A DNA stretch of 64,000 bases from an uncultured bacterium (GTDB lineage: Bacteria > Vulcanimicrobiota > CADAWZ01): the NCBI GenBank assembly GCA_949288455.1, contig CASEKF010000033.1, forward strand, positions 1,244-65,243, written 5' to 3'. This document shows positions 16,209 through 61,000 of the stretch, piece after piece (position 1 is the first letter of the stretch; the number at the start of each line of letters is the position of its first letter). A model generated the notes under the pieces. It was not told where the DNA came from. It saw nothing but the letters and a program-made list of their open reading frames with translations, and made no database searches. Position numbers and translations under genes: made by a program.

Positions 16209-16361
16209 AAGTACAAATCTCCATTATTCCTCAAAAGTTACGTAAGGTCTTAACGATTCTAATAAGTCCGTCATTTTATTCGTATTCATGATAAACAGCT
16301 GCCCCATTAATTTATAAGGTCCGCGAATAAAATTTATTTAAGAAGTTTTATCGCGATATCT

Positions 16362-39606: not shown

Positions 39607-39618
39607 TTAAATATAATA

Positions 39619-39655
39619 AAAGTCTCCGGATTTTTTTTCCGGAGACTTTTTATTA
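39619..39655. terminator. Bidirectional rho-independent terminator
   Basis: agtctccgg-loop T8-ccggagact. A/T runs on both sides. Lies between convergent genes. Confidence 0.8.
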
Positions 39656-39668
39656 TATTGTTAAAAAA

Positions 39669-40802
39669 TCATTTTAATATTTCAGACGAAGAAAAATCCC
39701 TATCAAGCGATAATTTTCTAAATAAATTCTCGTCAATCAACGGTTTTCCCGTTTTTATCATATTATCGATATTAACGGCTATGCCAGGGCCAAGCATAAG
39801 CCCTTGTCCGCACATTCCCAAAGCCGTTATTATATTGCCGCGTCTATCAACAAAAGGCACGCCGTCTTTTGTCATAGGATAAAAACCGCACCAGGAACGC
39901 CTAACCTTAACGTCGACCAATCCGGGAATCAAATTCAGCATGCGCCGACATATATTTGGAAGAAACGACGAAGTGTTTGTATTTGAAGAAGCGCTTAAAT
40001 CAGGCGGATCCGGCGATAAGCAGAAAATAATTTGCCCTTCCCTATTCTGATAAAAATAACAGCTGGCATAATCTCCTTTTTTCTCTATATCTACGACCAT
40101 AGCCTCAGTAAATCGTCCCACAGGTTCGGTTATAGCCGCCTCATGCCGCTCCATAAAAATTTCAGCCGATATTCCGGCTAATTTATGTACGTCGCAAACG
40201 CCGCTTGCCAAAATACAAACTCCGAATCCATATTTAGATTTATTAGTCTCAACCGTAGACGAAGATACTTTTAAAGCTTCTTCATTGAATAAAAATTCAG
40301 TTCCATTTTTAACCGCTTGTCTATAAAAAGCCTGCGCGGCAAGAAGAGAAGATATAGTCCCGTCCCCGGGCGCAAAGGAAGCTCCGCGCAAACCTTCCTT
40401 TTTTAAACCGGAGACTATCTCTAACGTTTCGTCAGGGGAAATCCAGCTTATATTTAAATTAAAGGAAGTCTGAACTTTTAAAAGGTCTTTTAAAATTGTT
40501 TCGGTAGCCTCCGTATAAGCAGGATAAAGATAACCTCCCTGAGTCCAAGAAATATCGTCCCCGTAAGTATCCTGCCAAGATGAAAGAACTTGCAGACTCG
40601 CGTGACATAAAGCTATTTTGCATCCCTCCGAATGAGTAGCCCTGATCCCTCCGATCGCGGCTTTATTCTGTCCCTGGGAGAATGAAAATTCACGCTCTAT
40701 AACCGCCGTCTTAAATCCTGATTCCGAAAGCTTCCAAGCCAGAGGCAGCCCGACGCTTCCGGCTCCGACTATTATAATATCATAATTTTTCATATATTCC
40801 AT
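39669..40802 (-). CDS. FAD-dependent oxidoreductase, HcnC/SoxB/DadA-like
   Basis: 377 aa with N-terminal dinucleotide fold 'DIIIVGAGSVGLPLAWKL'. Confidence 0.7.
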   Translation of the reverse strand: MEYMKNYDIIIVGAGSVGLPLAWKLSESGFKTAVIEREFSFSQGQNKAAIGGIRATHSEGCKIALCHASLQVLSSWQDTYGDDISWTQGGYLYPAYTEATETILKDLLKVQTSFNLNISWISPDETLEIVSGLKKEGLRGASFAPGDGTISSLLAAQAFYRQAVKNGTEFLFNEEALKVSSSTVETNKSKYGFGVCILASGVCDVHKLAGISAEIFMERHEAAITEPVGRFTEAMVVDIEKKGDYASCYFYQNREGQIIFCLSPDPPDLSASSNTNTSSFLPNICRRMLNLIPGLVDVKVRRSWCGFYPMTKDGVPFVDRRGNIITALGMCGQGLMLGPGIAVNIDNMIKTGKPLIDENLFRKLSLDRDFSSSEILK

Positions 40803-40815
40803 GCCTTATTCTTAT

Positions 40816-42918
40816 TTATTTTTTTACTTCATAAGCTCCTGAAAGAACCCTGAAAGAAGTTTCAAATTCAAGCGGTCTTAAACTTCTGCCCTCTATTTCT
40901 AGTCCTTCCGAACGACAAATTCTCTCTATCAAAGAAGCGCAAGTTTTACCTGCGCATGGCCCCATAGCGCATCTTAATAAAGCTTTCAACTCATGCAAAG
41001 AAGACGCTCCGTTCCGAATCATAGTCTTAATTTGTCCCGCCGTTACAGATTCGCATCTGCATACGATTTCATCGTCTTCAGGAAGGTCGCTATCAAGAGA
41101 GAAATCTTTTGAAACAAGTTCTTCAACTATAAATCCGGCGGCGTTTTTGCATATAAATTCAGACGACGCTACGGTAACCAAAGCTCTTTTATAACGATTG
41201 CTAAACGATATGTCTTGAATTATGCCGTCTCCTAAAGCTTTTCCTTCTATATCGGTAAGCTCAACTTTCTTTCCTACGTTTATTAAAGAAAGATTAAGTT
41301 CATAAGGTAAAATAGCTTTAGGATTTTCAGGATCTCGCCCGTCGAATAAAGTTATGCTAAGCGCAGGGCAAACTCTTAAACATTGGCCGCATCCCGAACA
41401 CTTTCCGGAAAAAACCGGAATCCCCGTAATCTTATCCGAATTTAACTTAATAGAGCCGTTAGGACATGCATATGCGCAAGGATTGCAAGGTATCTCTTGA
41501 ACGCATCTTATAATAGGATAAAGTTCTCCATATTCTGTCGGCTGAAAATCATAGATTTTTCCCGGTCTGCTTTTCATAACGTTAAATTTTTCCAGCCAAT
41601 CTTCAGGAATTTCAACTTTTTGGCCAAAAGATCGCAAAACTTTACGCGCAGTCAATTTGCCGCTAAACATAGCGGCTCCGGCCTCCGCTATTTCGGCTGC
41701 GTCTCCGCATGAATATATGTTAAAATTAAGTTTCTTACCCTCTAGGAACAATTCGTTGACGCTTTGAAAGCCAACGCTAAGCAACACGGCGTCAGCGTCA
41801 ATTTTCTTACTGGAACTTAAATCAGCCTTACCGTCTTTTATTTCGGCTATTACTACGGATTTAACTCCTTTTGCGTCGCCCAAAGCGGCCTGTACGGTAT
41901 GAGAAAAGTAAAAAGGGACTCCAAGCCTCTTTAACTTTAAGGCATGTACTTGGTAACCTCCGGCGTCCGCCCCAAGCTCGCAAATGCCGCATACCTTAAT
42001 TCCCGCCTGCATAGCATGAAAAGCCGCGATAAGTCCTACGTTTCCGGCTCCTATGATAAAAAGCTTTTCCGCGGGCTTAACGAGATCTCTGTTAAGAATA
42101 GTCTGAAAAGCTCCCGCTCCATATACTCCCGGCAAATGCCATCCGGGGAAAGAGAAAGCTTTTTCCCGCGCTCCCGTAGCTACTACGACGCATTCAGGCT
42201 TAATAAGGATATACCCCGAATCCGAAACTGCACCCACAGTAAAGTCGCTAAACATCCCTATAGCCGATACCGAGGGCATATATTTGATCTCGTCGTAAGA
42301 AGAAATCTTCTCGTAAAGTTTCGATGCGATTTCAAAACCTCTTACGCCCGCGTAGCATTCCTCTTTTGATCCGAAAAACGGATGCGTCTGCATTAAAAGT
42401 TTTCCTCCGGCTTCGGGTTTATCGTCTATTAAAAGAGTTTCCACTCCCGCCTCGGCAAGCTCGACGGCACATGATAGGCCGGCAGGTCCGGCTCCTATAA
42501 CCAAAACCTTAGTTGACAGATATATCGGATCCTTAAATTCAAGCGGCGAAACGGAATCCGGAAGGCTCTCAGGCTTTAAAAACGGACGGACGTCCATACC
42601 TTCTTTAACTAAAGTCATACAGGCTTTTACTACTTTGCCGTCTGCGATCACGGAGCATTGAGAACACTGCCCGTTAGCGCAAAAAATACCCTGAGGCCGC
42701 CCTTTTTTCTCGCCGAAAATCCTTATGCCGGCCGCGAACAAAGCGGAAGAAATCGTCTCGCCGGCTTTAGCCGAAATCTTCTCGCCGGAAAAGAAAAACG
42801 ATAAAGAATCTTTTTCCTTTATAGAAAGAATAGGATGAGACTTCAAACGGAAATCAAGCATAAAATTCCTCTCATAAATAAAATTTAACTTCTCTGATTC
42901 TTCTTTAGAAAAAATCAA
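40816..42918 (-). CDS. Multi-cluster Fe-S flavoprotein, equivalent to an HcnA/HcnB or SoxA-like fusion
   Basis: 700 aa with a 2Fe-2S motif (CANGQCSQCSV...C), FAD/NAD fold 'VLVIGAGPAGLSCAVELAEAGV', two 4Fe-4S ferredoxin motifs (CNPCAYACP, CSGCGQCLRVCP) and a C-terminal BFD-like [2Fe-2S] (CRCESV...CAMGPCAGKTC). Confidence 0.7.
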   Translation of the reverse strand: MIFSKEESEKLNFIYERNFMLDFRLKSHPILSIKEKDSLSFFFSGEKISAKAGETISSALFAAGIRIFGEKKGRPQGIFCANGQCSQCSVIADGKVVKACMTLVKEGMDVRPFLKPESLPDSVSPLEFKDPIYLSTKVLVIGAGPAGLSCAVELAEAGVETLLIDDKPEAGGKLLMQTHPFFGSKEECYAGVRGFEIASKLYEKISSYDEIKYMPSVSAIGMFSDFTVGAVSDSGYILIKPECVVVATGAREKAFSFPGWHLPGVYGAGAFQTILNRDLVKPAEKLFIIGAGNVGLIAAFHAMQAGIKVCGICELGADAGGYQVHALKLKRLGVPFYFSHTVQAALGDAKGVKSVVIAEIKDGKADLSSSKKIDADAVLLSVGFQSVNELFLEGKKLNFNIYSCGDAAEIAEAGAAMFSGKLTARKVLRSFGQKVEIPEDWLEKFNVMKSRPGKIYDFQPTEYGELYPIIRCVQEIPCNPCAYACPNGSIKLNSDKITGIPVFSGKCSGCGQCLRVCPALSITLFDGRDPENPKAILPYELNLSLINVGKKVELTDIEGKALGDGIIQDISFSNRYKRALVTVASSEFICKNAAGFIVEELVSKDFSLDSDLPEDDEIVCRCESVTAGQIKTMIRNGASSLHELKALLRCAMGPCAGKTCASLIERICRSEGLEIEGRSLRPLEFETSFRVLSGAYEVKK

Positions 42919-45900
42919 GACCCCTTTTTCAAACTCTCCGTTTTCAGTTTTTTCGGCATAGCGTAAACTCTGTCATACGAGTTCATTAACAAGTAAACTG
43001 AAGCTGGAGGAACGGTAAGACTGCCCTCTTGAACGGATTTGAAATATAAAGATTTTGACAATCGCCTTTTAGGTTCCAATTTATTTATATAAATCGTAAC
43101 TTTAGCGTTATCGAACAAATATCCGCCGATATCGGAATCTTCAAGAAAGCTCAGTTCCGGCGAAAATCCAGGAATATAAGGTATCTCCAAAACAAGGTTT
43201 CTAATTTCGGTATCTCCGGAATTAACTACCGAAACTGAATACTTTATAGTTTGGCCTAAAGAAACCTCGCTTTCGGAAGTATGAGAGTATATTTTTAAAT
43301 TTTTCAAGTCGGAAGACGGCAAGACTTTTTCTTCGTCGTTCTTAATTGAGAAAAGATATGAGCCGGATATCTCGCCCGGTATTTGAATCTTGAATATATT
43401 ATCGGCTTTCAAAAGACGTTTATCTAAATTTAAATTCACTATGCGGTTATATTTTTTATTGTACGTAGCGTAAAATAAGGCGTCGTTTACAGATATTCCT
43501 ACGTTTATATCTCCTTCGGGCAAATTATTATCAAATACCAAAGATAAAGTTTCCAAAACGTCTGCCGTAGCCGGAGAAGAATACCAAATTCCAGTCCTAT
43601 GCCTGGTCTGCATTATGTAATCGACCGCTCTCTTGACAACGTCGCGATAACCTCCGGATTTAAGAAGGACTCTAAGACAAAGCGCAGTCGCCTGCACGTT
43701 TTCAGGTTTGCCTGGCAGAGCCGAATATAATCCCTCCAGAGCGTTCCAACAAACTATATCATGAGTATGAAGAGCATTTTTATTGATAAGACCGGCAATC
43801 TTACCGGTCAATTCCTCGTCTATTTTATAAAAAGTCAAGGCCGCGTAAGCTAGAGCGTAGGGATCCTTACTCGCTAAAATATTTTTTTTAAGCCAATTCA
43901 GAGACTTTTTAAACTCCGGCGAACCGGAATATCCGCTTTTTGATAAGGAATATAAAACTTTTGAGGTAATTCTTACGTTATCTTCCCAAGATCCGTTCTT
44001 TTTCTGCAGGTTAAAAATCCATTTTACAGACGAATCTATGATTTTAGGATCTACGAAAATATGCTTTTTAGACATAATTAAAGCTTCTACTGCGGAAGAC
44101 GTGATCCATAAATCGGCTTTTGAATTATGAGTTAAGGCGAAACTGCCGTCAGGATCGCCGTAAGAGATTACGTTTTGCACGTTGCAAGCCAAAGAATATT
44201 TAAATCGTTTCATGTATTCGGAAGACGAAGAAGAAAGATAATCTAAAATGGAAGAAGATATCTTAATCATATTTACGTAATATATGCAATTATGTCTATC
44301 GTCGTCGGCAAAAGAGTCGAAACATGATATATAATGAGACAGTATCCCGGGATAGACGCTTAACTCTATGCCTTCCATAGTTTTTAGCTCTTCGTCGGAA
44401 AATCTTATCCTCTGAGATACGGATCCGGAAAATCTGCCTCCGGCAGAACGTTCGTCTAAAGCGTACCGAGCGGGAATCGTAATATTTTCATATTTGGAAT
44501 CCCTATAAAAACCGCAGTTTAAAGACGCGATAATCCTCCCCTTTCCTTCTTTCTCAGCCGACACCCATATGGGCAATGATATTGTTTCATAAGGCATCAG
44601 CTTTATTTTAAAGGGCGAGGAAGAATCGCACTTAATCATCCCCTCCCCTTTAATCAGGACGGATATTTCCTCAGAGGAATTCGAATGATTTTTTATATTC
44701 GCAAAACATTTTAGTCTATCGCCTTTATACATAGTTCTAGAAGCGTTGAACGCTATGCTGTACGGACGTTTGACTTCAAAATCGACAGGCTCTGAAAAAT
44801 TTACTCCCTTCCCGGTAAAAGCCGCCGCCATAAGAGAAAATTTTCCGGATGCGGAAGGAGCGATAAAAGAAGTTTTCGCGGAACCGGAAGGAGATAATTT
44901 AACGTTAAAAAAATCAATCCATTCTCCGGAAGAAAACGGTTCGTAACGCGCAAAATCGTTGTTTCCGGTTTCAGTCCGCATAAGCGAGGCAGTTTGAGGT
45001 TTTGGATCTGACAAAGAGGAAATAAAAGGAGTCGAAGATAAAAAACGAGCGTAACCTTTATAAGAAATAAAAAAAATGAAGCAGGCCGCTAAAAGAATTC
45101 CCGTTAAAAAAACGGGTCTGAAAACTTTTTCGTTCTCCGGTTTGCTCAATTTTAAATAAGTTAATACTAAAGTTAAAACGGGCAAAAGCAAAAACGACAT
45201 GACCGAGAGTTCCGAAATCAAAATATTTGACGAGAATAGAGTTCTATAATTCCATATATCCCATAAATTTAAAGACGATATTATAACCAGCAAACCCGCG
45301 ATAGTAACGGCAAAAATATAAACGATGGTAAAACTCAAAATATTTATAAACGCCCTATCGGCAGGCTTATTTACCCGGCGATGAAGAAAGTGGGCAAGAA
45401 ACATTAAATATACGAATAAAAGACATACCGCGAGAGCGTCGACAGCCAGAGCGTATCTGGACGTAAAAAATTCGCTTACGTCCATACTCTTAATAGACAT
45501 TAAACATAACGCGGTTAAAAAGACGATAAATAAAATAAACGGCAGCCCGAAAGTAAAAATAAAAGCCCCCGGAATATCGTCAGAGTCAAAAGGATCCGGC
45601 TCCTTTTTAAAAAACAGAGACGCAAAACATTCTTTCAAAGCGTAAAATAAAAGACCAAAAAAGGCTAACAAAGACACTACAAGACAAACTTTAAAAAAAT
45701 ACGAAAATAAACGCTTATAATACGATATTTTTGCCTCGGCGCTTCTATCTGATTTCAACTTATAAATATCTTCAAAATAAAATCCGGGAATTTTAGAGTA
45801 AGATTCGCTCAAAACGATCCGGCATATACTCTGAATTTCAGAAGATCCGATGTCCATAGACTCTCTAAAGAAAACGGGGCGTTTTTTAAAATAATTTACA

Positions 45901-47759
45901 AAATTTCTTCCGAAATCATTTACGTCGCGTACGTCAATTCCGGATGAAGAATTGTCGCACAAAGCGGCAAAAACCATTCCGCTTCCTTTTTCAGCGTTTT
46001 TGGCATAAAAAGACACGTCTGCCTTTTCTCCGGTATTAAACGTGTCTTTAGCGAGCTCGGCGTTTAAAAGAGGCTTGTCTATGCCCATTATATATACGGG
46101 AAAAACTTTTTGTTCCAATACCCCTTCCAAATCCATTCTTTGGATAATAATTTCGCATACGCCTTCAATATCTTCAGGAATGAAAAAATCAAAACTTGTC
46201 TCTGGAATTTCAACTTTCGTCATATCTGACTTAACAATTACTCCGTCTTTAGAAAGAGAAATTAAAACCGGTTCGGCGTCCGAAGACGAATAAATCTTTA
46301 AACCGGCGTTGCTTCCGGCCTTCATACAAGAATTTAAAAGACGAACGGAGAAGGAAGACACGGAAGTATAAGCGGAAAAATCAAAAGGAATTTTGCGAAA
46401 CGCTCCGTTCGGCGCAGTTATTTCAAATATAGGCACGGATCCGATTTCCAAAGCCGGATCAATTTCGAGCTCAGCTAAACCGGCTTTATCGCTTTTAATC
46501 GAAACCTCGCCGTTTTTCAGCCTAACTTTCAGGTTTGCGGAAACTGGAGAGCCATCCGGAAGACAAGTGAAAACAAATAAACGATTAGGAGTTCCGGGAG
46601 TAAGAGAATTGCCTTCGGGAATAAAAGATACGAGAAAAGGCTCGTCCGATATTTTATAGGAAGCGGAAGCCTCGGCAAAGGAACTGTCTAGGCGCTTAGC
46701 CTTTATATTTAAAGTCAACTCTAAGGAATTTTCCAATAAGAAATCTTTCTCATAAACCGAAGGGGAATACTCAAAAACAAATTTTCCCGCAGAATCCGTG
46801 ACGCCTGAAATTTGTTTTTCAGCTAATATGGAATCTCCCGTTTTTTCGGTTATAAAAGAAGAAATTTCGGCATTAGGCATCCTCATTCCGTATTGATCTT
46901 CCAGCAAAGCGGAAATTCTAGTCGTCTTCCCGGACATAAAATAAGAAGGATTAAGTTCCGTTTTAATTTTTAAATCGGGGGTCTGAACGGAAGATATTCC
47001 GATACTTTTTGAAGCTGAAACTCCTCCGGACGAAACGACTATTTTATAAGTTCCCTGCCTAAGCATAGAAGCAAGGGGAACTTTATCCATATAACAGCCA
47101 AAAGATAAGGTTTTAGAAGCATTAGAATATAAAATTCTTCCATGCTCGTCTAGCAAACTTATTGAGATATCCCTCTCTACCATCGACGGAGTTTTAGATA
47201 TAACGGCGCATATAACGTCGATATCGTCGCCCGGAGAATAGCTCGAACTATTAGTAGATATGACTATTCTGTTAGACGATTCAATCTTAAACGTTTTTTT
47301 AAAACTTACGTTGCCTAATCTATGATACGCCGAAATATCGCATACGGCTTCTCCCGAAATATAAGAAGGTATATACGAAGACAAGAGCGCGTAACCGGAA
47401 GAATCAGACTTAGCTTCGGCTTTCCCGAATATCAGTCCCGCGGAATCGCGAAAACTAACGGTAACTAAAGCCCCGTTAACGGGCGTATTAGTCTCAGCGT
47501 CTTTAAGCGCGCATATCAAGGTAAAATCGGAATCAGAATAAGGGGTTTCCGGCGACAGCATAAATATCTGCAAATTTCCTTTAAAATATCCGGAAAAGGA
47601 TATCCATAAAGTAACGGCCGCAAAAACGATCAAAAGAATTGCCGCGACTCGTTTAATTAAAATATTATTTCGTTCGGACAAAGAAAACAGCTTCATAAAA
47701 TACGCTCCAAAAATTCGTTTTTTTGCCGGGCGATGGACGCATAATACCAGAAAATCCAA
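42915..47759 (-). CDS. Giant polytopic membrane protein with alpha-macroglobulin-like MG/Ig domains, a central six-TM block and an alpha-alpha toroid domain; thioester motif not found
   Basis: 1614-aa ORF. Probable start is the internal Met at 47696 (MKLFSLSERN). There is an N-terminal signal anchor, repeated beta-sandwich segments, several strongly hydrophobic helices around aa 680-900, toroid-like signatures (GSWEDNVRITSKVLYSL, TGIWYSSPATADVLETL) and a C-terminal DUF11-like beta domain. Stop overlaps the next gene's start by 4 nt. Confidence 0.6.
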   Translation of the reverse strand: MDFLVLCVHRPAKKRIFGAYFMKLFSLSERNNILIKRVAAILLIVFAAVTLWISFSGYFKGNLQIFMLSPETPYSDSDFTLICALKDAETNTPVNGALVTVSFRDSAGLIFGKAEAKSDSSGYALLSSYIPSYISGEAVCDISAYHRLGNVSFKKTFKIESSNRIVISTNSSSYSPGDDIDVICAVISKTPSMVERDISISLLDEHGRILYSNASKTLSFGCYMDKVPLASMLRQGTYKIVVSSGGVSASKSIGISSVQTPDLKIKTELNPSYFMSGKTTRISALLEDQYGMRMPNAEISSFITEKTGDSILAEKQISGVTDSAGKFVFEYSPSVYEKDFLLENSLELTLNIKAKRLDSSFAEASASYKISDEPFLVSFIPEGNSLTPGTPNRLFVFTCLPDGSPVSANLKVRLKNGEVSIKSDKAGLAELEIDPALEIGSVPIFEITAPNGAFRKIPFDFSAYTSVSSFSVRLLNSCMKAGSNAGLKIYSSSDAEPVLISLSKDGVIVKSDMTKVEIPETSFDFFIPEDIEGVCEIIIQRMDLEGVLEQKVFPVYIMGIDKPLLNAELAKDTFNTGEKADVSFYAKNAEKGSGMVFAALCDNSSSGIDVRDVNDFGRNFVNYFKKRPVFFRESMDIGSSEIQSICRIVLSESYSKIPGFYFEDIYKLKSDRSAEAKISYYKRLFSYFFKVCLVVSLLAFFGLLFYALKECFASLFFKKEPDPFDSDDIPGAFIFTFGLPFILFIVFLTALCLMSIKSMDVSEFFTSRYALAVDALAVCLLFVYLMFLAHFLHRRVNKPADRAFINILSFTIVYIFAVTIAGLLVIISSLNLWDIWNYRTLFSSNILISELSVMSFLLLPVLTLVLTYLKLSKPENEKVFRPVFLTGILLAACFIFFISYKGYARFLSSTPFISSLSDPKPQTASLMRTETGNNDFARYEPFSSGEWIDFFNVKLSPSGSAKTSFIAPSASGKFSLMAAAFTGKGVNFSEPVDFEVKRPYSIAFNASRTMYKGDRLKCFANIKNHSNSSEEISVLIKGEGMIKCDSSSPFKIKLMPYETISLPIWVSAEKEGKGRIIASLNCGFYRDSKYENITIPARYALDERSAGGRFSGSVSQRIRFSDEELKTMEGIELSVYPGILSHYISCFDSFADDDRHNCIYYVNMIKISSSILDYLSSSSSEYMKRFKYSLACNVQNVISYGDPDGSFALTHNSKADLWITSSAVEALIMSKKHIFVDPKIIDSSVKWIFNLQKKNGSWEDNVRITSKVLYSLSKSGYSGSPEFKKSLNWLKKNILASKDPYALAYAALTFYKIDEELTGKIAGLINKNALHTHDIVCWNALEGLYSALPGKPENVQATALCLRVLLKSGGYRDVVKRAVDYIMQTRHRTGIWYSSPATADVLETLSLVFDNNLPEGDINVGISVNDALFYATYNKKYNRIVNLNLDKRLLKADNIFKIQIPGEISGSYLFSIKNDEEKVLPSSDLKNLKIYSHTSESEVSLGQTIKYSVSVVNSGDTEIRNLVLEIPYIPGFSPELSFLEDSDIGGYLFDNAKVTIYINKLEPKRRLSKSLYFKSVQEGSLTVPPASVYLLMNSYDRVYAMPKKLKTESLKKGS

Positions 47760-47783
47760 GGAATCGAAGGCATGTCTCCGCTA

Positions 47784-53167: not shown

Positions 53168-56100
53168 CTATCGCTTAATTTTAATCGAAAAACCCTCCAT
53201 AGAATATATATTTCTGCCGTCTACGGACAAAATTCCGTCGCATATCAGAACTCCTTCTTCAAGAAAGCGAGATTTTACCCATACCAAAACCTTAACTCTG
53301 GAATCCGAAGGAATTATCTGCCCTCTATAAGTCCACTTGTGAGAGGACATAGGAAGCAAAGACGAAAAACCGCTAATATTTGCAGAAGTTCCTTTTGCAA
53401 AATAGACAGCCATATATTTCATAAGAGAAATCATAGATTCAAGACCAAGAGATCCCGGTATTACAGGATCTTGATAAAAATGAGCTTTGAAAAACCAGGA
53501 ATCAGGCTCCACGTACAAAACGCCTTCTATGAGTCCTAAGCCAAAAGGTCCCCCGTCGGGATAAAAAGCCGAAATTTCATCTATCATTCCCAACTTTTTA
53601 GAGGGAAAAGGAGAACCGAAAGGATACGGACCCTTAAAAACAGAACCATGAGAAACTCCGGGAGAAGGGATATCTAGATCCCTTATGCCTATCTGATTTT
53701 TAAGAGCTTCTTTCGAAAAGAAACCAAAATAAGTCGTTCCTTCATATACTAAGCCGCGTTCATCGAAAACTTTAAGCGAATAATTTTGAATCAGCATTCC
53801 GGCGGCTTGAGAAACTTTATCGAGAACAACTTTAGTTTCCAACAGTTTGGTATTCCTAGTCGCCGCGCGGATGACTCTGGCTTCTCCGCCCAAATTTCGA
53901 AACGAGAGATCTTCCGAAGAAGTCAAAGCCGAACCGAGATAAGCGGCCAGCCAACCGCAAGGTTGCAGAGCGACTTCCAGAAGGATGGAAAAAGGCATGG
54001 AATCTAAAGAAGATTCGTCAAAATACCATTCGTCTCCTGATATATCATATTGCGCGACAGCCGAAGCCGGAGCGGTTAAAACCCATTTTTCGCCCGAAAC
54101 TTCTACTATTCGATCCAAAAATTTATAAGGAGGTCTTGGAAGCCTAGCGATAATTCTATCTTCGTCAAAGGGTTTATACTTGTCTCCAAAAGCCTTTGAA
54201 GGTTTGCCGGCGGCAAACTCCATTATAGATTCGTTATCATACGCCGCCTTTTTGATTTCAGCTTTAAAAGGCGCGGAAACGTTATGCCATATTGCCTCTA
54301 ATTTCTGCTTACCGCTTCCGGTTAATTGAATGGACATATTGAGCATTTCTACGACAGGCTTATCGTCGGCGTACATTAAAGCGTCAGCTAAAGCGTAAGG
54401 ATAAGGATTATATCCGATTTCTTTTACCGATATTTTAAACGAAGCTTTTTTAGTCGAAGCCGTGACCTGCCCTCTGCACTTTAAAGAACTTGAAACTCCC
54501 TGAACAGGCTCCCAGCGGCATTCCGAAGCTTCCCCGACAAAACCGGCTCTCATTAAAAAAAACCTCAACGTATGCATACAGCACTCGTACATCAAAGTGC
54601 CCGGCATCACATTGTCGTCTGAAAAGTGACAAACCAGGAACCAATCGTCAGGATGAATATCAAGTTCGGAAACGATGGATCCCAGAGAATATTTTCCGCC
54701 GCAGGGCGAAAGCGACACTACTCTGTCAATAAGCTTCATATATTTATGAGAAGGCAAGGCCGCTACCCGTTTTATCGGGAGGTTTTCAAACAGCTCTCCA
54801 AAACAACCTCCCGGATTGCCTTTGCGAAGTTCGTTTAAAGCGGCATCTCCGTAAGCTTCTTCAAAAATAATCTCCACGGGAAATTCAAAACCGTTCTTTA
54901 AAACTCCGGCTACAGGCTTCAAATCAAGTCCGGTACGTATAAGTCCTCTGCCGGAATCCAGCTGTTCCCGCGTAAAAAAGCCCGCGCATCCGTTTGTCAT
55001 AGACAAAAGCTTTCTGCCTGAAACAAAACTTTCAAAATTAAAATAGAACAGCCAAGTTGATCCTTGAGTAAAAAACCTTTCTATATTTATTTCATAACGA
55101 ATAGTTTCTCCGGGAGAAGGCAAAGAACCATGAAAAGATATCTTAGCGTCTAAAAGTCTATAAACGGCCAATCCTTTCGTTATTTTATCGATACCAAGCC
55201 AGGCCGAAAGAAATAAATCGGATTGCCCCGCTTCTACCGCTATGCAAGTCGGTATAACTCCGTTATCCAAATACCAACGATCGGGCAAAACGTCATGCTC
55301 GGTAACGACTCTTCCTGAAGTCAAAGACATAGGCTCTCCCTCTACGCTTATGATTCTATCGACAAGCATTAAGGGTTCGTCTGGAAGTCTGACTCTGGTT
55401 GGATGAGAGTCTATAAAAGCAAATTTTTCTCCTAAGACACGGCCTATAGAGCCTACCGCAAACTCCATGCAGCTCTCTCTATCCATAAAAACTGTTTTTG
55501 CTACCGAAGGCGAGTCAATATGTTCGCAAGCCGAAATATGAAGCGGCTCCGGAAACGTCTGTTCCAAAATACCCGGCCGTAAAGAAGACAAAGCCAATAG
55601 AGAAGACGTCAGCTCGAACGATAAAGTTAAAAATTCTGAATGAGCCCTGCTCTGAGCGGTTAGAATCCGTAACAAAGCATCCGTATCAACGTAAGGTTCA
55701 TCAACGTTGCAGGTTTTTAAATCTCTCTTGACGTTAATATCCGCAGATTGATCTTTTATAAGATTCGGCGAAGGACAATCTCTATTATTCGAGGCGATAA
55801 GAGGAAGTTTTTCTTTATAATTAGCGCGAACGCGAGACGCTTTATCCGCGACGGAGCCCGTTCGATCGGCTGCGTCCAGTTTAAATTTCTCGGCTCTTTT
55901 TAAAAATGGTTCGGGAGCGAGCGAAACGATCATCCCGGATTTTAGAGAAGGAACGCGGCGATCAAATAAAGGCTCGGGATTAAAATTGACGCCAAAGACG
56001 AAAAGTTCAGCGCAAAGCGTAATAAGCGCAGTTATTTCCGATTCGCCCTCCCTAGTCATGTTTACGGCGAGATGAGGCCGATTTTTCAATATAGCGTTTA

Positions 56101-59100
56101 TCATTCTGGAACAAGACTTGCCCGGGCCTACTTCGATAAAAATTCTAACGCCGTCTTCGTAAGCTCGATTTATAACGGCAGGGAAATCAATCGTATCGGA
56201 AGCTTGAGCCAAAATAGCATCGGCTATCGATTCCGACGTAGGTTCGAAACATCTTCCCCATGCCGAACTATAGAAAGATATTTGTTCAGGGTTATCGGCG
56301 GGGAAAAAATGCAAATCGCGGTATTTGTCCGCCACCGGCTTCACAACCTCGCAATGTACTGAGGTGACTCCCTTTATAGGCAAAAGTTCGCAGCCTAAAT
56401 CTTTTGCCAATCTTAAAACCTCATTTTTATCTCCTCCTATAACGCAATCTTCAGGAGTATTTATTATTAAAAGATAAACTTTTTTTCTGTCTTTGAGCAA
56501 TGATTTAATTTTATCAGGCGGAGCCGCGACTACTCCTATGAGCCAATTAATCTTCTCCGAAACTCCCCAAGTTTTTTTGACCGCGTTAAAATCTCCGGCT
56601 AAATCGGAAGTAAAAAGAGACGAAGAGAGCATCTTCTCTCGCATTTTGTCCCTGCTTTTCCAAACCCTTAGAGCCGTTACTCCGGCCATTTCGCCGAGGG
56701 AATAACCTATTGAAACGTCAGGCTTCACGCCTAAAAAACATAATACGTCCGAAGCGATCGAAGACATTGCGGTCTGGCCCTGCAGCAGAGCGGGATGATT
56801 ATCCGCTACGGCTTCGGCATCCATTCCGCTCCAGAATATGTCCGGAAGGATCTGGTCTTTAAGCCTCATATTCTCTCTATCCTGAACGTTCATCACTTCG
56901 GGGAATCTTAAGGCAAGTTCCCTGCCCATACCCATATAATAATTTCCCGAGCCCGGGAATACGAAAGCTAACTTGCCTTTTAAAGAAGGATCGGGCTTGC
57001 CAATAAAAATAGAGGAAGACGTTTTGGGAAAAAGATCAGCCAAATTCCTTAGTTCCGCGGCGCTTTCCGCAACTACGGCGCACCTCAAATCTCCGGAGCC
57101 GATTTCTTCGCTCTCGTAAAATAAACGAGCGGCTTGACTAAAGCTAAAAGCCGAATTTTCCATAAAATCAGCCGCCTTTTGAAGTTTTTTCTTTAACTCG
57201 CTTTCCGAATAACCTGAAAAGAAGAAAATCTCTTTCTTTTGGAAGCGGTGTATATGCTCCGGTTTTGCGGCTCCTTCGGAGATAAAAATTTTTCGCGACG
57301 TCCCATTTATATTTACGGCAGAAACCTCCGTTTTCAAAGGTTCGTCGGCTCTGTTTCTAAGAGCGTAGGAGCCGAAAAAGCGATATCTGTCTTTCAAAAA
57401 AAGACACTGCAGCGCAAGCTCTAAAGCTCCTCCGCAGCAGCCGAAAGAAAGGGCTTCTAAAGACTGCGGAACTAACGAAGCATTGTCGACGACAGCGCCG
57501 TCTATCACCGCGTAAATTTTATTTCCGTCCTTTAAGGCGTCGTCGAAACGTTTCAAAACGAAAGCGACGGCGGAGTCTCGAAAATTAATCTTTTGGGAAT
57601 ATATTTTTCTTTTAGCGAACGCCGCGCGATCATCCGACGCCATATCTGCGCTTCCGGCGACGGCCAGAGAAATTTCCCCTAAAGACAAGGCTCTTACCGC
57701 TTCGGAGACCGCGGCTAAACCTCCTGTCTCCGCTTCCGACATCGTAAAAGAAGAATTAGAGCACTTAAATTCCCGAGCTATTCGGCTGGCAGTTATGCTT
57801 CCTAAAGAACCCATAGTTCTGTTAGCGTTTAACGGCGGAGCAAAACGATCGCTACCGGTTTTCCACCTAACGTAAAAATCGGTAGAGGAAAAATCAAAAC
57901 TTATTCCTATAAATACTCCTCCGTCCTTAAGTTCGTCTTCGGAAACTCCCGAATCTACAACGGCTTCTTTAGCCGTAAACAACATGGCTTTTTGCTGAGG
58001 CAAGGCTTCCTTAAGTTCGTTAGGCGGAATTCTAAAAGATCCGTAAGGTATTCTAGTCGGATTCATAAAACGAGCCCCGTCTTCCTCTCCGCAAGCTCGC
58101 GCAGATTCAAATTCATACGCGTTATCTGCTCCTCCGGTTCTCAAGGCCAAACCAATCACGGCGACTTTTACGGAAGGTTTTAAAAATACGGAAGAATATA
58201 TTTTACGTTCGCTCGGAACATAATTTTCAACGAGTAAATGAGCGTTTATACCTCCGAATCCAAAAGCGCTGACAGCCGCCTTTTTATGAATAGAATCCCA
58301 TTTTTCAGCCTTCTTCAAAACTTCAAAAGGCGAACATGAAAGAGGCACGGAAGGATCCTCAAAATTAGCCGTAGGCGGCAAAAGGCCACGGTTGACGGAA
58401 AGAAGCGCTTTCAAAATTCCGGCTCCTCCGGCTCCGGTGAGCAAATGCCCTATATTTGATTTCGAACTGGAGAGGACATGACGTTTTTTATTTGAAGGAT
58501 AAGCGTTAAAAAGCGCGGTTAAACTGTCGAACTCAATTCTATCTCCTACCGGAGTCCCGGTGGCATGACACTCGAAAAGCTCTACGTCCCAAGGAGACCA
58601 GCCGGTCTGTTCGTAAGCCTTTTTCATAGATCTTAACTGTCCTTCCGAAGAAGGAGACAAAAGACTTCCGGAAATATCGTTTGACAACCCTACGGCTCTA
58701 ATGATTCCATATATTCTGTCTCCGTCCTTAAGAGCGTCGTCAAACCTTTTAAGAGCCACGATTCCGGCTCCTTCTCCTATGACGAGTCCCTTGCCCTTTT
58801 TGTCAAAAGGAGCGCAAATTCCGTCCGACGACAAAGCCGAAAGCTGAGTGAAACCTATGGCGGTATACATACAATCCGGCCTCGAGACTCCTCCTGCCAG
58901 CATGAGATCGGCTTCTCCGCAAGTCAGTCGATCGCATGCAAGTTTTATAGCGTAAAGGGATGAAGCGCATGCGGCGTCTAAAGTAACAGCTTCCCCCTTA
59001 AAACCTAAAGATTTCGCAAGAGAAATAGCGGTAAAGGAGTTAACGAAAGAATTTAAGGGATTTACCGTAACCGAATCCGCCGATTCGGCCAATTCGCATG

Positions 59101-59506
59101 CAAGCCTGGACGCCGTCTCGGTAGGCAAAGCTATGCTGCCTAATATAACTCCGGCTCTATCCAAAGAAATATTAGAAGAATTAACTTCGGCGAAGGCATC
59201 TTGTCCGGCAGCCATCGCTATCAGAAACAGAGGATCAAACGATAGGATCGTTTCCTTTGAAAAAGCTCCGGCTTTAAGGCGTGAAGGATCGGGCGTATCT
59301 ACGAAACAACCCATATCCGACGCTGCTTTATCAGGAGCTTTCTCCCTTGACAACGCCTGTTCGACAGGTAGAACCCATCTTCCGGCCGGAACATGCCTAA
59401 CGGCTGACTCGGCGTTTTCCACAAGCTTCCAAAAACCGTCCAAATTTCCGCAGCCGGGCAAAACTCCGCCCAAACCGACTACGGCGACGTCATAACACTT
59501 ATTCAT
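53168..59506 (-). CDS. PUFA-synthase PfaC/Pfa3-like multidomain enzyme: KS, CLF-like KS, AT, tandem FabA-like DH domains
   Basis: Probable start is MNKCYD at 59506 (GGAGG RBS upstream). The ORF extends to 59593. KS1 has DAACASSL/ECHATGT/KSNIGH. KS2 lacks the Cys (SEAETGG). AT has GYSLGEMAG. There are two FabA-type hotdog pairs (CHFSDDNVMPGTLMYE and AHFYQDPVIPGSLGLE). No ACP, KR or ER is seen. Confidence 0.85.
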   Translation of the reverse strand: MNKCYDVAVVGLGGVLPGCGNLDGFWKLVENAESAVRHVPAGRWVLPVEQALSREKAPDKAASDMGCFVDTPDPSRLKAGAFSKETILSFDPLFLIAMAAGQDAFAEVNSSNISLDRAGVILGSIALPTETASRLACELAESADSVTVNPLNSFVNSFTAISLAKSLGFKGEAVTLDAACASSLYAIKLACDRLTCGEADLMLAGGVSRPDCMYTAIGFTQLSALSSDGICAPFDKKGKGLVIGEGAGIVALKRFDDALKDGDRIYGIIRAVGLSNDISGSLLSPSSEGQLRSMKKAYEQTGWSPWDVELFECHATGTPVGDRIEFDSLTALFNAYPSNKKRHVLSSSKSNIGHLLTGAGGAGILKALLSVNRGLLPPTANFEDPSVPLSCSPFEVLKKAEKWDSIHKKAAVSAFGFGGINAHLLVENYVPSERKIYSSVFLKPSVKVAVIGLALRTGGADNAYEFESARACGEEDGARFMNPTRIPYGSFRIPPNELKEALPQQKAMLFTAKEAVVDSGVSEDELKDGGVFIGISFDFSSTDFYVRWKTGSDRFAPPLNANRTMGSLGSITASRIAREFKCSNSSFTMSEAETGGLAAVSEAVRALSLGEISLAVAGSADMASDDRAAFAKRKIYSQKINFRDSAVAFVLKRFDDALKDGNKIYAVIDGAVVDNASLVPQSLEALSFGCCGGALELALQCLFLKDRYRFFGSYALRNRADEPLKTEVSAVNINGTSRKIFISEGAAKPEHIHRFQKKEIFFFSGYSESELKKKLQKAADFMENSAFSFSQAARLFYESEEIGSGDLRCAVVAESAAELRNLADLFPKTSSSIFIGKPDPSLKGKLAFVFPGSGNYYMGMGRELALRFPEVMNVQDRENMRLKDQILPDIFWSGMDAEAVADNHPALLQGQTAMSSIASDVLCFLGVKPDVSIGYSLGEMAGVTALRVWKSRDKMREKMLSSSLFTSDLAGDFNAVKKTWGVSEKINWLIGVVAAPPDKIKSLLKDRKKVYLLIINTPEDCVIGGDKNEVLRLAKDLGCELLPIKGVTSVHCEVVKPVADKYRDLHFFPADNPEQISFYSSAWGRCFEPTSESIADAILAQASDTIDFPAVINRAYEDGVRIFIEVGPGKSCSRMINAILKNRPHLAVNMTREGESEITALITLCAELFVFGVNFNPEPLFDRRVPSLKSGMIVSLAPEPFLKRAEKFKLDAADRTGSVADKASRVRANYKEKLPLIASNNRDCPSPNLIKDQSADINVKRDLKTCNVDEPYVDTDALLRILTAQSRAHSEFLTLSFELTSSLLALSSLRPGILEQTFPEPLHISACEHIDSPSVAKTVFMDRESCMEFAVGSIGRVLGEKFAFIDSHPTRVRLPDEPLMLVDRIISVEGEPMSLTSGRVVTEHDVLPDRWYLDNGVIPTCIAVEAGQSDLFLSAWLGIDKITKGLAVYRLLDAKISFHGSLPSPGETIRYEINIERFFTQGSTWLFYFNFESFVSGRKLLSMTNGCAGFFTREQLDSGRGLIRTGLDLKPVAGVLKNGFEFPVEIIFEEAYGDAALNELRKGNPGGCFGELFENLPIKRVAALPSHKYMKLIDRVVSLSPCGGKYSLGSIVSELDIHPDDWFLVCHFSDDNVMPGTLMYECCMHTLRFFLMRAGFVGEASECRWEPVQGVSSSLKCRGQVTASTKKASFKISVKEIGYNPYPYALADALMYADDKPVVEMLNMSIQLTGSGKQKLEAIWHNVSAPFKAEIKKAAYDNESIMEFAAGKPSKAFGDKYKPFDEDRIIARLPRPPYKFLDRIVEVSGEKWVLTAPASAVAQYDISGDEWYFDESSLDSMPFSILLEVALQPCGWLAAYLGSALTSSEDLSFRNLGGEARVIRAATRNTKLLETKVVLDKVSQAAGMLIQNYSLKVFDERGLVYEGTTYFGFFSKEALKNQIGIRDLDIPSPGVSHGSVFKGPYPFGSPFPSKKLGMIDEISAFYPDGGPFGLGLIEGVLYVEPDSWFFKAHFYQDPVIPGSLGLESMISLMKYMAVYFAKGTSANISGFSSLLPMSSHKWTYRGQIIPSDSRVKVLVWVKSRFLEEGVLICDGILSVDGRNIYSMEGFSIKIKR

Positions 59507-59917
59507 CAAAAGCCTCCATACGTTGAATGCCTCTCGGCCAAGCGGACAAACGCGCGAAAATATCTCAGTCAATATAAAAACAAATGACCGCAATAAAAAC
59601 GATTTTATTCACGCTGAAAACACGTTCCGATATTGCAAATTATCCGCTTTAAAAGAAGAAAAACAGCCTATATCATTTTATACGCCGTTTTTCAGCTAAC
59701 TGCATTTAATTCTTTAATATTTTACGATATCCTTTAACTGACGGCTAAAGCTTATGTCTAAACGACATAATTGAAAGAATCGGCGAAAGGCGTCTGATAA
59801 CGTCATATAAAATAAGCCGAGGAATAAACAAAAATCAATTTAACGAGCAAAGTATTTTTCAACTATTTTCAAAATTCGGCGAAGTGATAAAAAGCTCAAA
59901 ATTTTATAAAAAAGCTA

Positions 59918-59946: not shown

Positions 59947-59986
59947 AACATCACTGCGACGGAAGATTTCCATAAAGCAGATGAAT

Positions 59987-60061
59987 CGGGGCGTAGCGCA
60001 GCTTGGCTAGCGCATCTGGTTTGGGACCAGGGGGTCGGAGGTTCAAATCCTCTCGCCCCGA
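59987..60061 (+). tRNA. tRNA-Pro (anticodon TGG)
   Basis: Manually folded cloverleaf with anticodon loop TTTGGGA and 7-bp acceptor CGGGGCG/CGCCCCG. Confidence 0.9.
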
Positions 60062-60080
60062 TAGGGAGTCCCATTAAAAT

Positions 60081-60157
<77 letters not shown>

Positions 60158-60167
60158 TTAGATACGC

Positions 60168-60242
60168 GGTGAGCGTAGCTCAGCTGGTTAGAGCGCCGGT
60201 CTGTGGAACCGGAGGTCGTGGGTTCGAATCCCATCGCTCACC
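60168..60242 (+). tRNA. tRNA-His (anticodon GTG)
   Basis: Loop CTGTGGA, encoded G-1, acceptor GTGAGCG/CGCTCAC. Confidence 0.9.
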
Positions 60243-60288
60243 TTTCCGTCAGGCAATTTCGTTAATTGTTTAATTTTTGTTTTCATAA

Positions 60289-60361
60289 GGGTCGTTAGCT
60301 CAGTTGGCAGAGCACCTGACTTTTAATCAGGGTGTCACAGGTTCGAATCCTGTACGACCTA
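60289..60361 (+). tRNA. tRNA-Lys (anticodon TTT)
   Basis: Anticodon stem CCTGA/TCAGG with loop CTTTTAA. Confidence 0.9.
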
Positions 60362-60453
60362 TTATTATTGCGAGTCGTCGTTAGTATTCAAGATAAAGCG
60401 GCTCTTACGGGCGTAGCCGGTTTTAATCCTGCACGGCCTATCTTAGTTATTTT

Positions 60454-60526
60454 GGGCCATTAGCTCAGTTGGTAGAGCACCTGACTCTTAATCAGGGTGT
60501 CGCGGGTTCGAGCCCCTCATGGCCCA
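60454..60526 (+). tRNA. tRNA-Lys (anticodon CTT)
   Basis: Loop CTCTTAA, acceptor GGGCCAT/ATGGCCC. Confidence 0.9.
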
Positions 60527-60542
60527 TCGCTCAAAATTTAAA

Positions 60543-60624
60543 GGGCGAGTGGCGGAATTGGCAGACGCGCTAGACTTAGGATCTAGTGGCTTAGGTCGTG
60601 GGGGTTCAAGTCCCTTCTCGCCCA
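60543..60624 (+). tRNA. tRNA-Leu (anticodon TAG), class II with long variable arm
   Basis: Loop CTTAGGA, 3-bp D stem, long extra arm. Confidence 0.85.
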
Positions 60625-60692
60625 TTATGATCGATGACGGTTATAAGATTTAAAGCTTATGCAAGCTTAATTTCAAATATTAAAATTTTTAC

Positions 60693-60765
60693 GCGGAAGT
60701 AGCTCAGCGGCTAGAGCATCGCCTTGCCAAGGCGGGGGTCGAGGGTTCGAATCCCTTCTTCCGCT
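60693..60765 (+). tRNA. tRNA-Gly (anticodon GCC)
   Basis: Loop TTGCCAA, acceptor GCGGAAG/CTTCCGC, discriminator U. Confidence 0.85.
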
Positions 60766-61000
60766 CTTATAGTCAATTAAATACTTGGGGCATAAGGCTC
60801 TTTTAAAATCAGCTTAAAGCCTTAGCGAATAAAGCGGCTCAAAATAACATTCGTCAATTTGACGCTATCGGGAACGCAACTCAAGTGAAATTTACGAATA
60901 TTTAAGCCGCAAAAAATACCTCTAAAATTCAATTTATCTTTTAGGGGATTGGCTTCGAAGAGCGAACCGCAGAAAACGCCGCCTTCGAGCATATTGTTGG

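Follow-up and report, generated by a model that had tools for sequence, protein, structure and literature searches.

We analyzed a 64,000-nucleotide stretch of DNA (hereafter the window) from an uncultured bacterium of the Vulcanimicrobiota lineage CADAWZ01 (GenBank assembly GCA_949288455.1, contig CASEKF010000033.1, positions 1,244 to 65,243) and focused on a large minus-strand gene that lies inside a block of ole and pfa genes for olefin and polyunsaturated-lipid synthesis. We are highly confident that its product is a polytopic membrane protein of the A2M/C3/TEP superfamily and that it is not specific to olefin synthesis. As for its function, we see about an even chance that it acts as a protease trap devoid of a thioester, doubly tethered to the cytoplasmic membrane and exposed on its outer side. 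A2M-family proteins are soluble, lipid-anchored or glycosylphosphatidylinositol (GPI)-anchored protease traps that are set off through a flexible bait running through a ring of macroglobulin (MG) domains. The family studied here consists of the window protein (P0001 cluster) and five relatives, P0002, P0015, P0016, P0017 and P0018. The gene and the parts of its product (aa, amino acids) are as follows; AF2 stands for AlphaFold2, pLDDT and pTM for its confidence scores, TM for transmembrane and TED for thioester domain.

42915..47696, minus strand: whole gene, 1593 codons plus a TGA stop, read from the likely ATG at 47696
47592..47696, minus strand: cytoplasmic tail and predicted uncleaved signal-anchor helix (TM0), aa 1-35; hydropathy peak at aa 17-35, AF2 helix at 8-33
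45966..47591, minus strand: MG1-MG6 macroglobulin beta-sandwich ring, predicted extracytoplasmic, aa 36-577; AF2, Foldseek and profiles
45861..45965, minus strand: variable, probably disordered loop, aa 578-612; pLDDT <50, length-variable and unconserved in the six members
45708..45860, minus strand: helical segment leading to TM1, aa 613-663; AF2 helix 619-632, a short strand and the start of helix 644-695
45057..45707, minus strand: six-helix TM module, aa 664-880; hydropathy and AF2 helices (pLDDT 72, pTM 0.67)
44922..45056, minus strand: Ser/Thr/Pro-rich linker after TM6, aa 881-925, in the place of alpha'NT; low pLDDT at 890-905, unconserved
44508..44921, minus strand: A2M domain (MG7 region), aa 926-1063; Pfam PF00207 and family profile
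44247..44507, minus strand: pre-TED segment, presumed first CUB half, aa 1064-1150; profile alignment to CD109 and A2M
43542..44246, minus strand: TED alpha/alpha toroid without thioester, aa 1151-1385; Pfam PF07678 (TED_complement), E 1.7e-13, above the cut-off
42918..43541, minus strand: presumed second CUB half and terminal beta-sandwich (MG8/receptor-binding-like/bMG10/DUF11-like), aa 1386-1593; profile to about 1570

Domain architecture of the A2M-like protein

The protein starts with a short K/R-rich tail (three or four K/R residues in each of the six family members) and a hydrophobic helix that is followed by no Cys, and no lipobox was found there. Beyond this helix, the AF2 model of aa 1-905, which was built from 13 sequences (mean pLDDT 77), is all-beta from approximately aa 42 to 566, with pLDDT values of 80-90 in the MG ring. 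Foldseek comparison of this model with the PDB returned, among its best 50 matches, exclusively C3, C5, C4 or cobra-venom-factor beta chains, CD109 or TEP1. The best match was the C3 beta chain (E 5e-26), and the TM-score to the target ranged from 0.62 to 0.68. Sequence profiles led to the same superfamily: the profile of the six members matched residues 34-389 of the C3 beta chain (E 1.6e-5), and a profile of aa 36-640 matched the MG1-MG6 regions of ordinary bacterial A2Ms in a 12-sequence set with E values of 1e-20 to 1e-63. Pfam MG2 was sub-threshold in the window protein, while MG2 or MG4 matches were obtained in five of the six members.

The C-terminal half was assigned by sequence profiles. 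PF00207 matched aa 931-1013 (E 2e-4; 21.5 bits for a cut-off of 21), and the family profile matched residues 934-1064 of E. coli YfhM/ECAM (E 1.8e-13), as well as CD109, human A2M and TEP1 (E of about 1e-18 to 6e-20) and A2ML1 and C3 (about 1e-16). The best continuous match was human A2M, which spanned query aa 926-1570; the alignment also ran across CD109. Matches to PF07678 were found in all six members (best E 2e-17), and the family profile recovered the TEDs of C3d, C5 and C4. In the segment preceding the toroid (aa 1064-1150), the expected thioester site reads ...SCFDSFADDDRHNCIYY; here FADDDRH, a stretch without the Cys and the Gln, stands opposite PYGCFEQ of a more distant bacterial A2M (P0003, described below) and PYGCGEQ of CD109. 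The terminal domain of the window protein matched TIGR01451 at aa 1475-1503, and relatives gave bMG10, A2M_recep or DUF11 matches at this position, except P0002, which is without the last domain.

An earlier note on this DNA, made from the letters and a list of open reading frames (ORFs), had read the protein as N-terminal MG-like beta-sandwiches, about six very hydrophobic middle helices and an alpha-alpha toroid followed by a DUF11-like domain. The beta-sandwiches, the helices (to which the N-terminal one is to be added) and the toroid, a TED, were all recovered, and the structure prediction that it had proposed as a check did reveal A2M similarity in the model of aa 1-905. Its failure to find a CxEQ motif was also borne out, since C.EQ is absent from the TED of all six members. 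For the terminal domain, a beta domain at the MG8/receptor-binding/bMG10 position stands, while the likeness to DUF11 is weak (TIGR01451, E 0.007).

A six-helix membrane module at the MG6 insertion point

Hydropathy and both AF2 models agreed on one N-terminal TM helix (aa 17-35) and six internal ones, the latter forming a module placed between MG6 and the A2M/MG7 domain. The alignment of the family profile to human A2M resumes at query residue 926, which corresponds to residue 736 of A2M (6tav numbering). In human A2M, R732 and F735 of the alpha'NT segment are conserved, and the bait region and alpha'NT end just before residue 736 (PMC9352918). Because the alignment resumes just past these two elements, the module lies at the classical MG6 insertion point of the superfamily, where MG6 is interrupted by inserted linker and bait regions and where complement proteins carry the ANA domain (PMC9352918). 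This site, known to take a bait region or ANA, can also take an integral-membrane module.

In all six members, most K/R residues belong to the N-terminal tail or to loops 1-2, 3-4 and 5-6, with loops 2-3 and 4-5 being K/R-poor. According to the positive-inside rule, this pattern indicates an N-in topology, and the even number of internal helices would then put both large halves of the protein on the same extracytoplasmic side. We infer this topology from the charge pattern and the helix count; same-side placement would be the sole arrangement that allows an A2M body to assemble. A conserved FED..YK...YYK motif was observed in the segment leading to TM1 (aa 613-663). Residue 663, which falls within a conserved YYK-x-x-FS motif directly ahead of TM1, is Arg in the window (codon at 45708-45710) and Leu in the public cluster representative P0001.

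Two stretches border the module (aa 578-612 and approximately 881-925), and they are the only poorly predicted and unconserved ones of the protein. Of these, aa 578-612 would be a first candidate for a protease-accessible bait segment and aa 881-925 a second.

To determine how widespread the module is, we scored a profile of aa 640-905 from the two closest members against 1.84 billion protein representatives. It was found in just six clusters (50% identity), in proteins of 1455-1600 aa that carry it at approximately aa 635-890, and no stand-alone copy was detected among these representatives. Only E642, F664, F679, S746, F761, N824, P839 and F863 were invariant, few of them polar, a pattern unlike that of a catalytic or ion-binding site. 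No solved fold in the PDB, including those of characterized membrane transporters and enzymes, matched aa 640-905 (best Foldseek E 0.24). A scan with the P0001/P0002 alignment revealed no relatives of the gene in 185,579 GTDB representative genomes or in JGI metagenome contigs, so that both the family and the species of the window are absent from these collections.

Genomic context and the olefin genes

The gene belongs to a block of approximately 20 kb made of nine minus-strand genes, from a PfaC-like synthase (53168-59593) through a DAO-family oxidoreductase (39669-40802). Its neighbors encode OleA (NF006720, E 1e-128), an OleB-like hydrolase, OleC (olefin beta-lactone synthetase models, E of about 1e-199), OleD (E 3.5e-104), a HetI/Sfp-type phosphopantetheinyl transferase (PPTase) and the PfaC-like synthase. 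The latter, located upstream of oleA, contains a ketosynthase, a chain-length factor, an acyltransferase and two FabA-type dehydratase domains, with no acyl carrier protein, ketoreductase or enoylreductase. PfaA-, PfaB- and PfaD-like genes were absent from the window; therefore, the rest of a Pfa-type synthase is either elsewhere or absent. At the other end of the block (39669-42861, minus strand) are a fused 2Fe-2S/FAD-NAD oxidoreductase/4Fe-4S/BFD protein (SoxA/HcnB-like) and a DAO-family flavoprotein (ThiO/SoxB/HcnC-like). Judged from their domains, this pair resembles heteromeric amino-acid dehydrogenases of the sarcosine, proline, opine or HCN type, with no obvious role in olefin synthesis. 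Seven plus-strand tRNA genes (59986-60766; Pro-TGG, Arg-TCT, His-GTG, Lys-TTT, Lys-CTT, Leu-TAG and Gly-GCC) separate the ole/pfa block from tig-clpP and form the upstream boundary of the block.

The ORF that the earlier note had reported at 42915..47759 is real and uninterrupted, with the correction that it lies on the minus strand; read from the TTG at 47759, it has 1614 codons, the length given there. We consider the ATG at 47696, 21 codons downstream, to be the likely start codon because GGAG is found 8 nt upstream, the N-terminus then aligns with that of the closest homologue (P0002) and public gene calls agree. The resulting 1593-aa product was called on 19 public contigs and is one residue apart from the window protein. 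With this start, the gap after the PPTase stop is 87 nt instead of the 24 nt previously stated:

47697..47783, minus strand: PPTase-to-gene gap, 87 nt; by sequence reading it holds the GGAG ribosome-binding site and TGGTATTAT

The element TGGTATTAT is an extended -10-like motif at 47741-47749 on the minus strand, about 45 nt upstream of the ATG, and its role as an internal promoter would be speculative; a consensus promoter scan reported no full sigma-70-like two-hexamer site in this gap. On the other side, the 4-nt overlap with the Fe-S flavoprotein gene resulted from the use of the longest ORF of that gene, whose likely start is the ATG at 42861 (preceded by AGGA), 53 nt past the stop of the A2M-like gene. 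Co-transcription with the ole/pfa genes remains plausible since all are read in the same direction with little space in between and no terminator intervenes: no terminator-like hairpin was observed among the PPTase, A2M-like and Fe-S genes, the first strong one (bidirectional, 13-bp stem) being at 39618-39650. The G+C content of the gene is 38.8% (37.6% at third codon positions) compared to 41.1% for the window, with similar values for the PPTase and oleB neighbors. A recent foreign origin of the gene was thus unsupported by base composition.

The other members of the family were found in other contexts. P0015, P0016 and P0017 come directly after prs and rplY, P0002 after pfk, and P0018 before an amino-acid permease gene. 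No ole genes were found on the contigs of these five members (7-45 kb), and adjacency to ole genes was seen only in near-identical contigs of the species of the window. Hence, the co-occurrence check suggested earlier, when applied to gene neighborhoods, was negative in five other family contexts; the ole/pfa neighborhood appears organism-specific, and a role in olefin synthesis is unsupported. The adjacency is probably accidental. On the P0016 contig, PriA is 51% identical to that of the window, which suggests that the family has been inherited vertically in a single uncultivated lineage and that its place beside the ole genes is derived. When metagenome contigs were scanned for OleC, the search yielded only two distant loci (48% identity), without A2M-like, Fe-S or DAO neighbors, which are too few to be informative.

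On the P0015 contig (L009 3-11093), the gene order begins with a conventional bacterial A2M, truncated at the edge of the contig, and continues with prs, rplY, the membrane A2M gene and a Peptidase_C39_2 gene. The conventional A2M, two genes upstream of P0015, has bMG5, A2M_BRD, A2M and bMG10 domains, and the C39-like peptidase gene overlaps the 3' end of the P0015 gene by 11 nt. The 1142-aa ORF of this contig, considered as a homologue of the Ser/Thr kinase-TPR protein of the window, was rejected as such and is the conventional A2M. From their predicted domains, these genes may form a protease-related cluster, and this neighborhood points to protease biology rather than to lipid biology.

The position of the gene raises the question of whether the protein could still be a part of the olefin/polyunsaturated-lipid pathway, as a scaffold, chaperone or exporter whose toroid and helix bundle handle the hydrophobic product of the PfaC-like and OleABCD enzymes. 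The protein is membrane-embedded, its gene is separated by gaps of only 87 and 53 nt, free of terminators, from the PPTase and from the last two genes of the block on the same strand, and its TED toroid shares a fold class with terpenoid cyclases, four of the six members even giving weak SQHop_cyclase matches. However, these matches (best 3e-5, in relatives) are far below the TED match, and P0001 gave none at E <0.01. As for membership in the terpenoid (squalene-hopene) cyclases, the best match was to TED and not to SQHop_cyclase families. In addition, the TM module showed no transporter-like fold and no conserved charged or polar residues within the membrane, the predicted topology places the two large domains outside while the CoA thioesters used by Ole enzymes are in the cytoplasm, and the adjacency is confined to the contigs of one species. 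To our knowledge, described ole clusters consist of oleABCD only. A pathway role, which the earlier note had raised in the form of a scaffold or export machine, is consequently very unlikely in our opinion. Its other proposal, that of an envelope protein with no relation to the operon in which it became trapped, agrees with the evidence. When olefin clusters are annotated, the A2M-like gene should be left out of the ole accessory genes.

A putative membrane-rooted protease trap

Based on this architecture, we propose the following mechanism for the protease trap. The signal-anchor helix would export the MG1-MG6 ring while leaving the N-terminus in the cytoplasm. The chain would then cross the membrane six times and re-emerge as MG7-CUB-TED-MG8, and both halves would assemble outside into an A2M body upon a pedestal of seven helices. 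A foreign protease cutting one of the exposed linkers (aa 578-612 or 881-925), in the role of bait, would trigger an A2M-type conformational change and be caged non-covalently, in a MagD-like manner. MagD, a bacterial A2M without thioester, traps a protease once its bait has been cut and depends on the membrane protein MagB to be localized at the inner membrane (PMC5764988). In the window protein, both cleavage fragments would remain on the membrane because anchoring is built in and double. The protein would thereby serve as an envelope guard with no role in olefin synthesis, its transcript probably being read through from the upstream ole/pfa/PPTase genes.

Several points weigh against this interpretation. 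The bait-region domain PF07703 was undetected in all six members, so that taking the linkers as baits is a guess, and the R..F motif of alpha'NT is poorly kept. The C-terminal half is known from sequence profiles, the AF2 model having covered aa 1-905 rather than the full-length assembly. Regarding the separation from lipid synthesis, the gene lies inside a 20-kb same-strand ole block without an intervening terminator, which makes a regulatory coupling possible, and since only 7-45 kb of sequence surrounds each of the relatives, ole genes could be elsewhere in those genomes.

The loss of the thioester, together with the undetected bait-region domain and the poorly conserved alpha'NT motif, would also fit a structural or adhesive surface protein without trapping activity, in which a membrane-rooted array of beta-sandwiches contributes to envelope architecture or attachment. 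MG and Big-like domains are frequent in adhesins, and two members gave Big_1 matches. Nevertheless, five of the six members, at 26-36% identity, have kept all the A2M domains through to the TED and the terminal one, which argues for selection on the whole machine, and in one relative (P0015) the gene has a conventional A2M and a peptidase for neighbors. We therefore regard a structural or adhesive role as unlikely, the protease trap being the reading that we retain. The protein is of interest for A2M and complement structural biology and for envelope stress, while it is uninformative on olefin biosynthesis.

Other A2M-like proteins with six internal helices

Among 84 collected A2M relatives, ten had internal TM helices: the six family members, P0003 and P0008-P0010. 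The last four proteins have exactly six helices each, also sited between MG6 and the A2M domain. P0003 (L097 145-5061; GCA_054921015.1, JBUDRZ010000174.1) is a bacterial A2M of 1638 aa that is complete, its CFEQ thioester being intact and no standard Pfam domain missing. In P0008-P0010, an N-terminal cytoplasmic zf-HC2 anti-sigma domain and a long Pro/Thr-rich linker were found, and no TED. P0009 (L096 5283-10233; JGI 3300056999, Ga0558716_01943; 1410 aa) starts with zf-HC2 and a TM helix, after which come MG1-MG6, the six TM helices, the Pro/Thr-rich linker and an A2M domain. An extracytoplasmic function (ECF) sigma gene (Sigma70_r2/r4_2) is located 11 nt upstream, and this arrangement suggests that P0009 is an anti-sigma factor whose ectodomain is A2M-like.

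Neither the TM module of P0003 nor that of P0008 had detectable homology to the module of the window family (hhalign probability <1%). Common descent followed by fast divergence, or repeated insertion, may explain the three six-helix groups. In the open-access literature, which makes for weak evidence, we found no paper on an A2M with internal TM helices or on an A2M-like anti-sigma factor. Three groups that are unrelated in the sequence of their TM module, one of them a sigma/anti-sigma pair, suggest a recurring and undescribed coupling of A2M-type ectodomains to the membrane.

These proteins bear on another function for the window protein, that of a transmembrane sensor whose seven helices would relay the cleavage of its ectodomain, or ligand binding, to a partner in the membrane or into the cytoplasm. 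The proteins P0008-P0010, with zf-HC2 and six helices at the same site, and with P0009 beside its ECF sigma gene, show that such ectodomains are put to signaling use. The cytoplasmic parts of the window protein, however, amount to a 16-aa tail and three loops of 11-23 aa with no recognizable output domain, no neighboring regulator is conserved, and no homology was detected between its TM module and the one of the anti-sigma group. We thus find a sensor function rather improbable here. The broader idea that the six-helix insert wires the A2M switch into the membrane, defining a new class of membrane-integrated A2M sensors that would include P0003 and P0008-P0010, strikes us as a long shot of comparable standing. 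In such a sensor, cutting of the bait or capture of a ligand on the outside would rearrange the seven helices and so signal to the cytoplasm or to membrane partners. If true, the sensor would, in the organism of the window, couple an attack on the envelope to the expression of the surrounding lipid-remodeling ole/pfa block.

Other genes of the window

Elsewhere on the minus strand (13470-18170), two atypical Hsp70-like genes were observed, one of which (912 aa) has a DUF3731 'DnaK-related' C-terminal domain. The pair is upstream of the gene for a 1160-aa Ser/Thr kinase-TPR protein and of priA, with nothing obviously related before it. The window comes from a deep-branching lineage. Its EF-G is a divergent paralogue, with at most 52% identity to GTDB representative genomes and best matches scattered across many phyla. 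For the tRNA-guanine transglycosylase (TGT), the closest relatives share 72-79% identity and the next ones, from mixed phyla, approximately 60%; ClpP is alone in its 90% cluster. Contigs identical or nearly identical to that of the window recur across many public sequencing runs.

Comparison with known A2M systems

The type II bacterial A2Ms, MagD of P. aeruginosa and YfaS of E. coli, resemble the window protein in having MG domains and a TED, in lacking CxEQ and, given the topology predicted for it, in acting on the outer side of the inner membrane. MagD, however, has its signal peptide cleaved off and is soluble in the periplasm, whereas the window protein is polytopic (1 + 6 TM helices) and has no detectable bait-region domain. 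Type II proteins are also encoded in a six-gene mag/yfa operon with MagB, and no mag-like neighbors were seen in the window or in the five related contexts, where no Mag-aimed profile search was made. The type I proteins, YfhM/ECAM and Sa-A2M of Salmonella, share the domain order and the membrane tethering. They are lipoproteins, they contain a CLEQ thioester as well as a bait-region domain, and their genes lie next to pbpC; all of these features are missing from the window protein.

Eukaryotic A2M, CD109, TEP1 and the complement proteins C3, C4 and C5 provided the best structural and profile matches, and their MG6 interruption likewise carries an inserted module. These proteins are secreted or GPI-anchored and have a thioester (except C5), while the insert of the window protein is a six-helix membrane bundle. 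The closest likeness in layout is with P0003 and P0008-P0010, which have the same succession of N-terminal anchor, MG1-MG6, six TM helices and A2M domain. P0003 keeps its CFEQ and P0008-P0010 have zf-HC2 and no TED, whereas the window family has no thioester and has its TED present.

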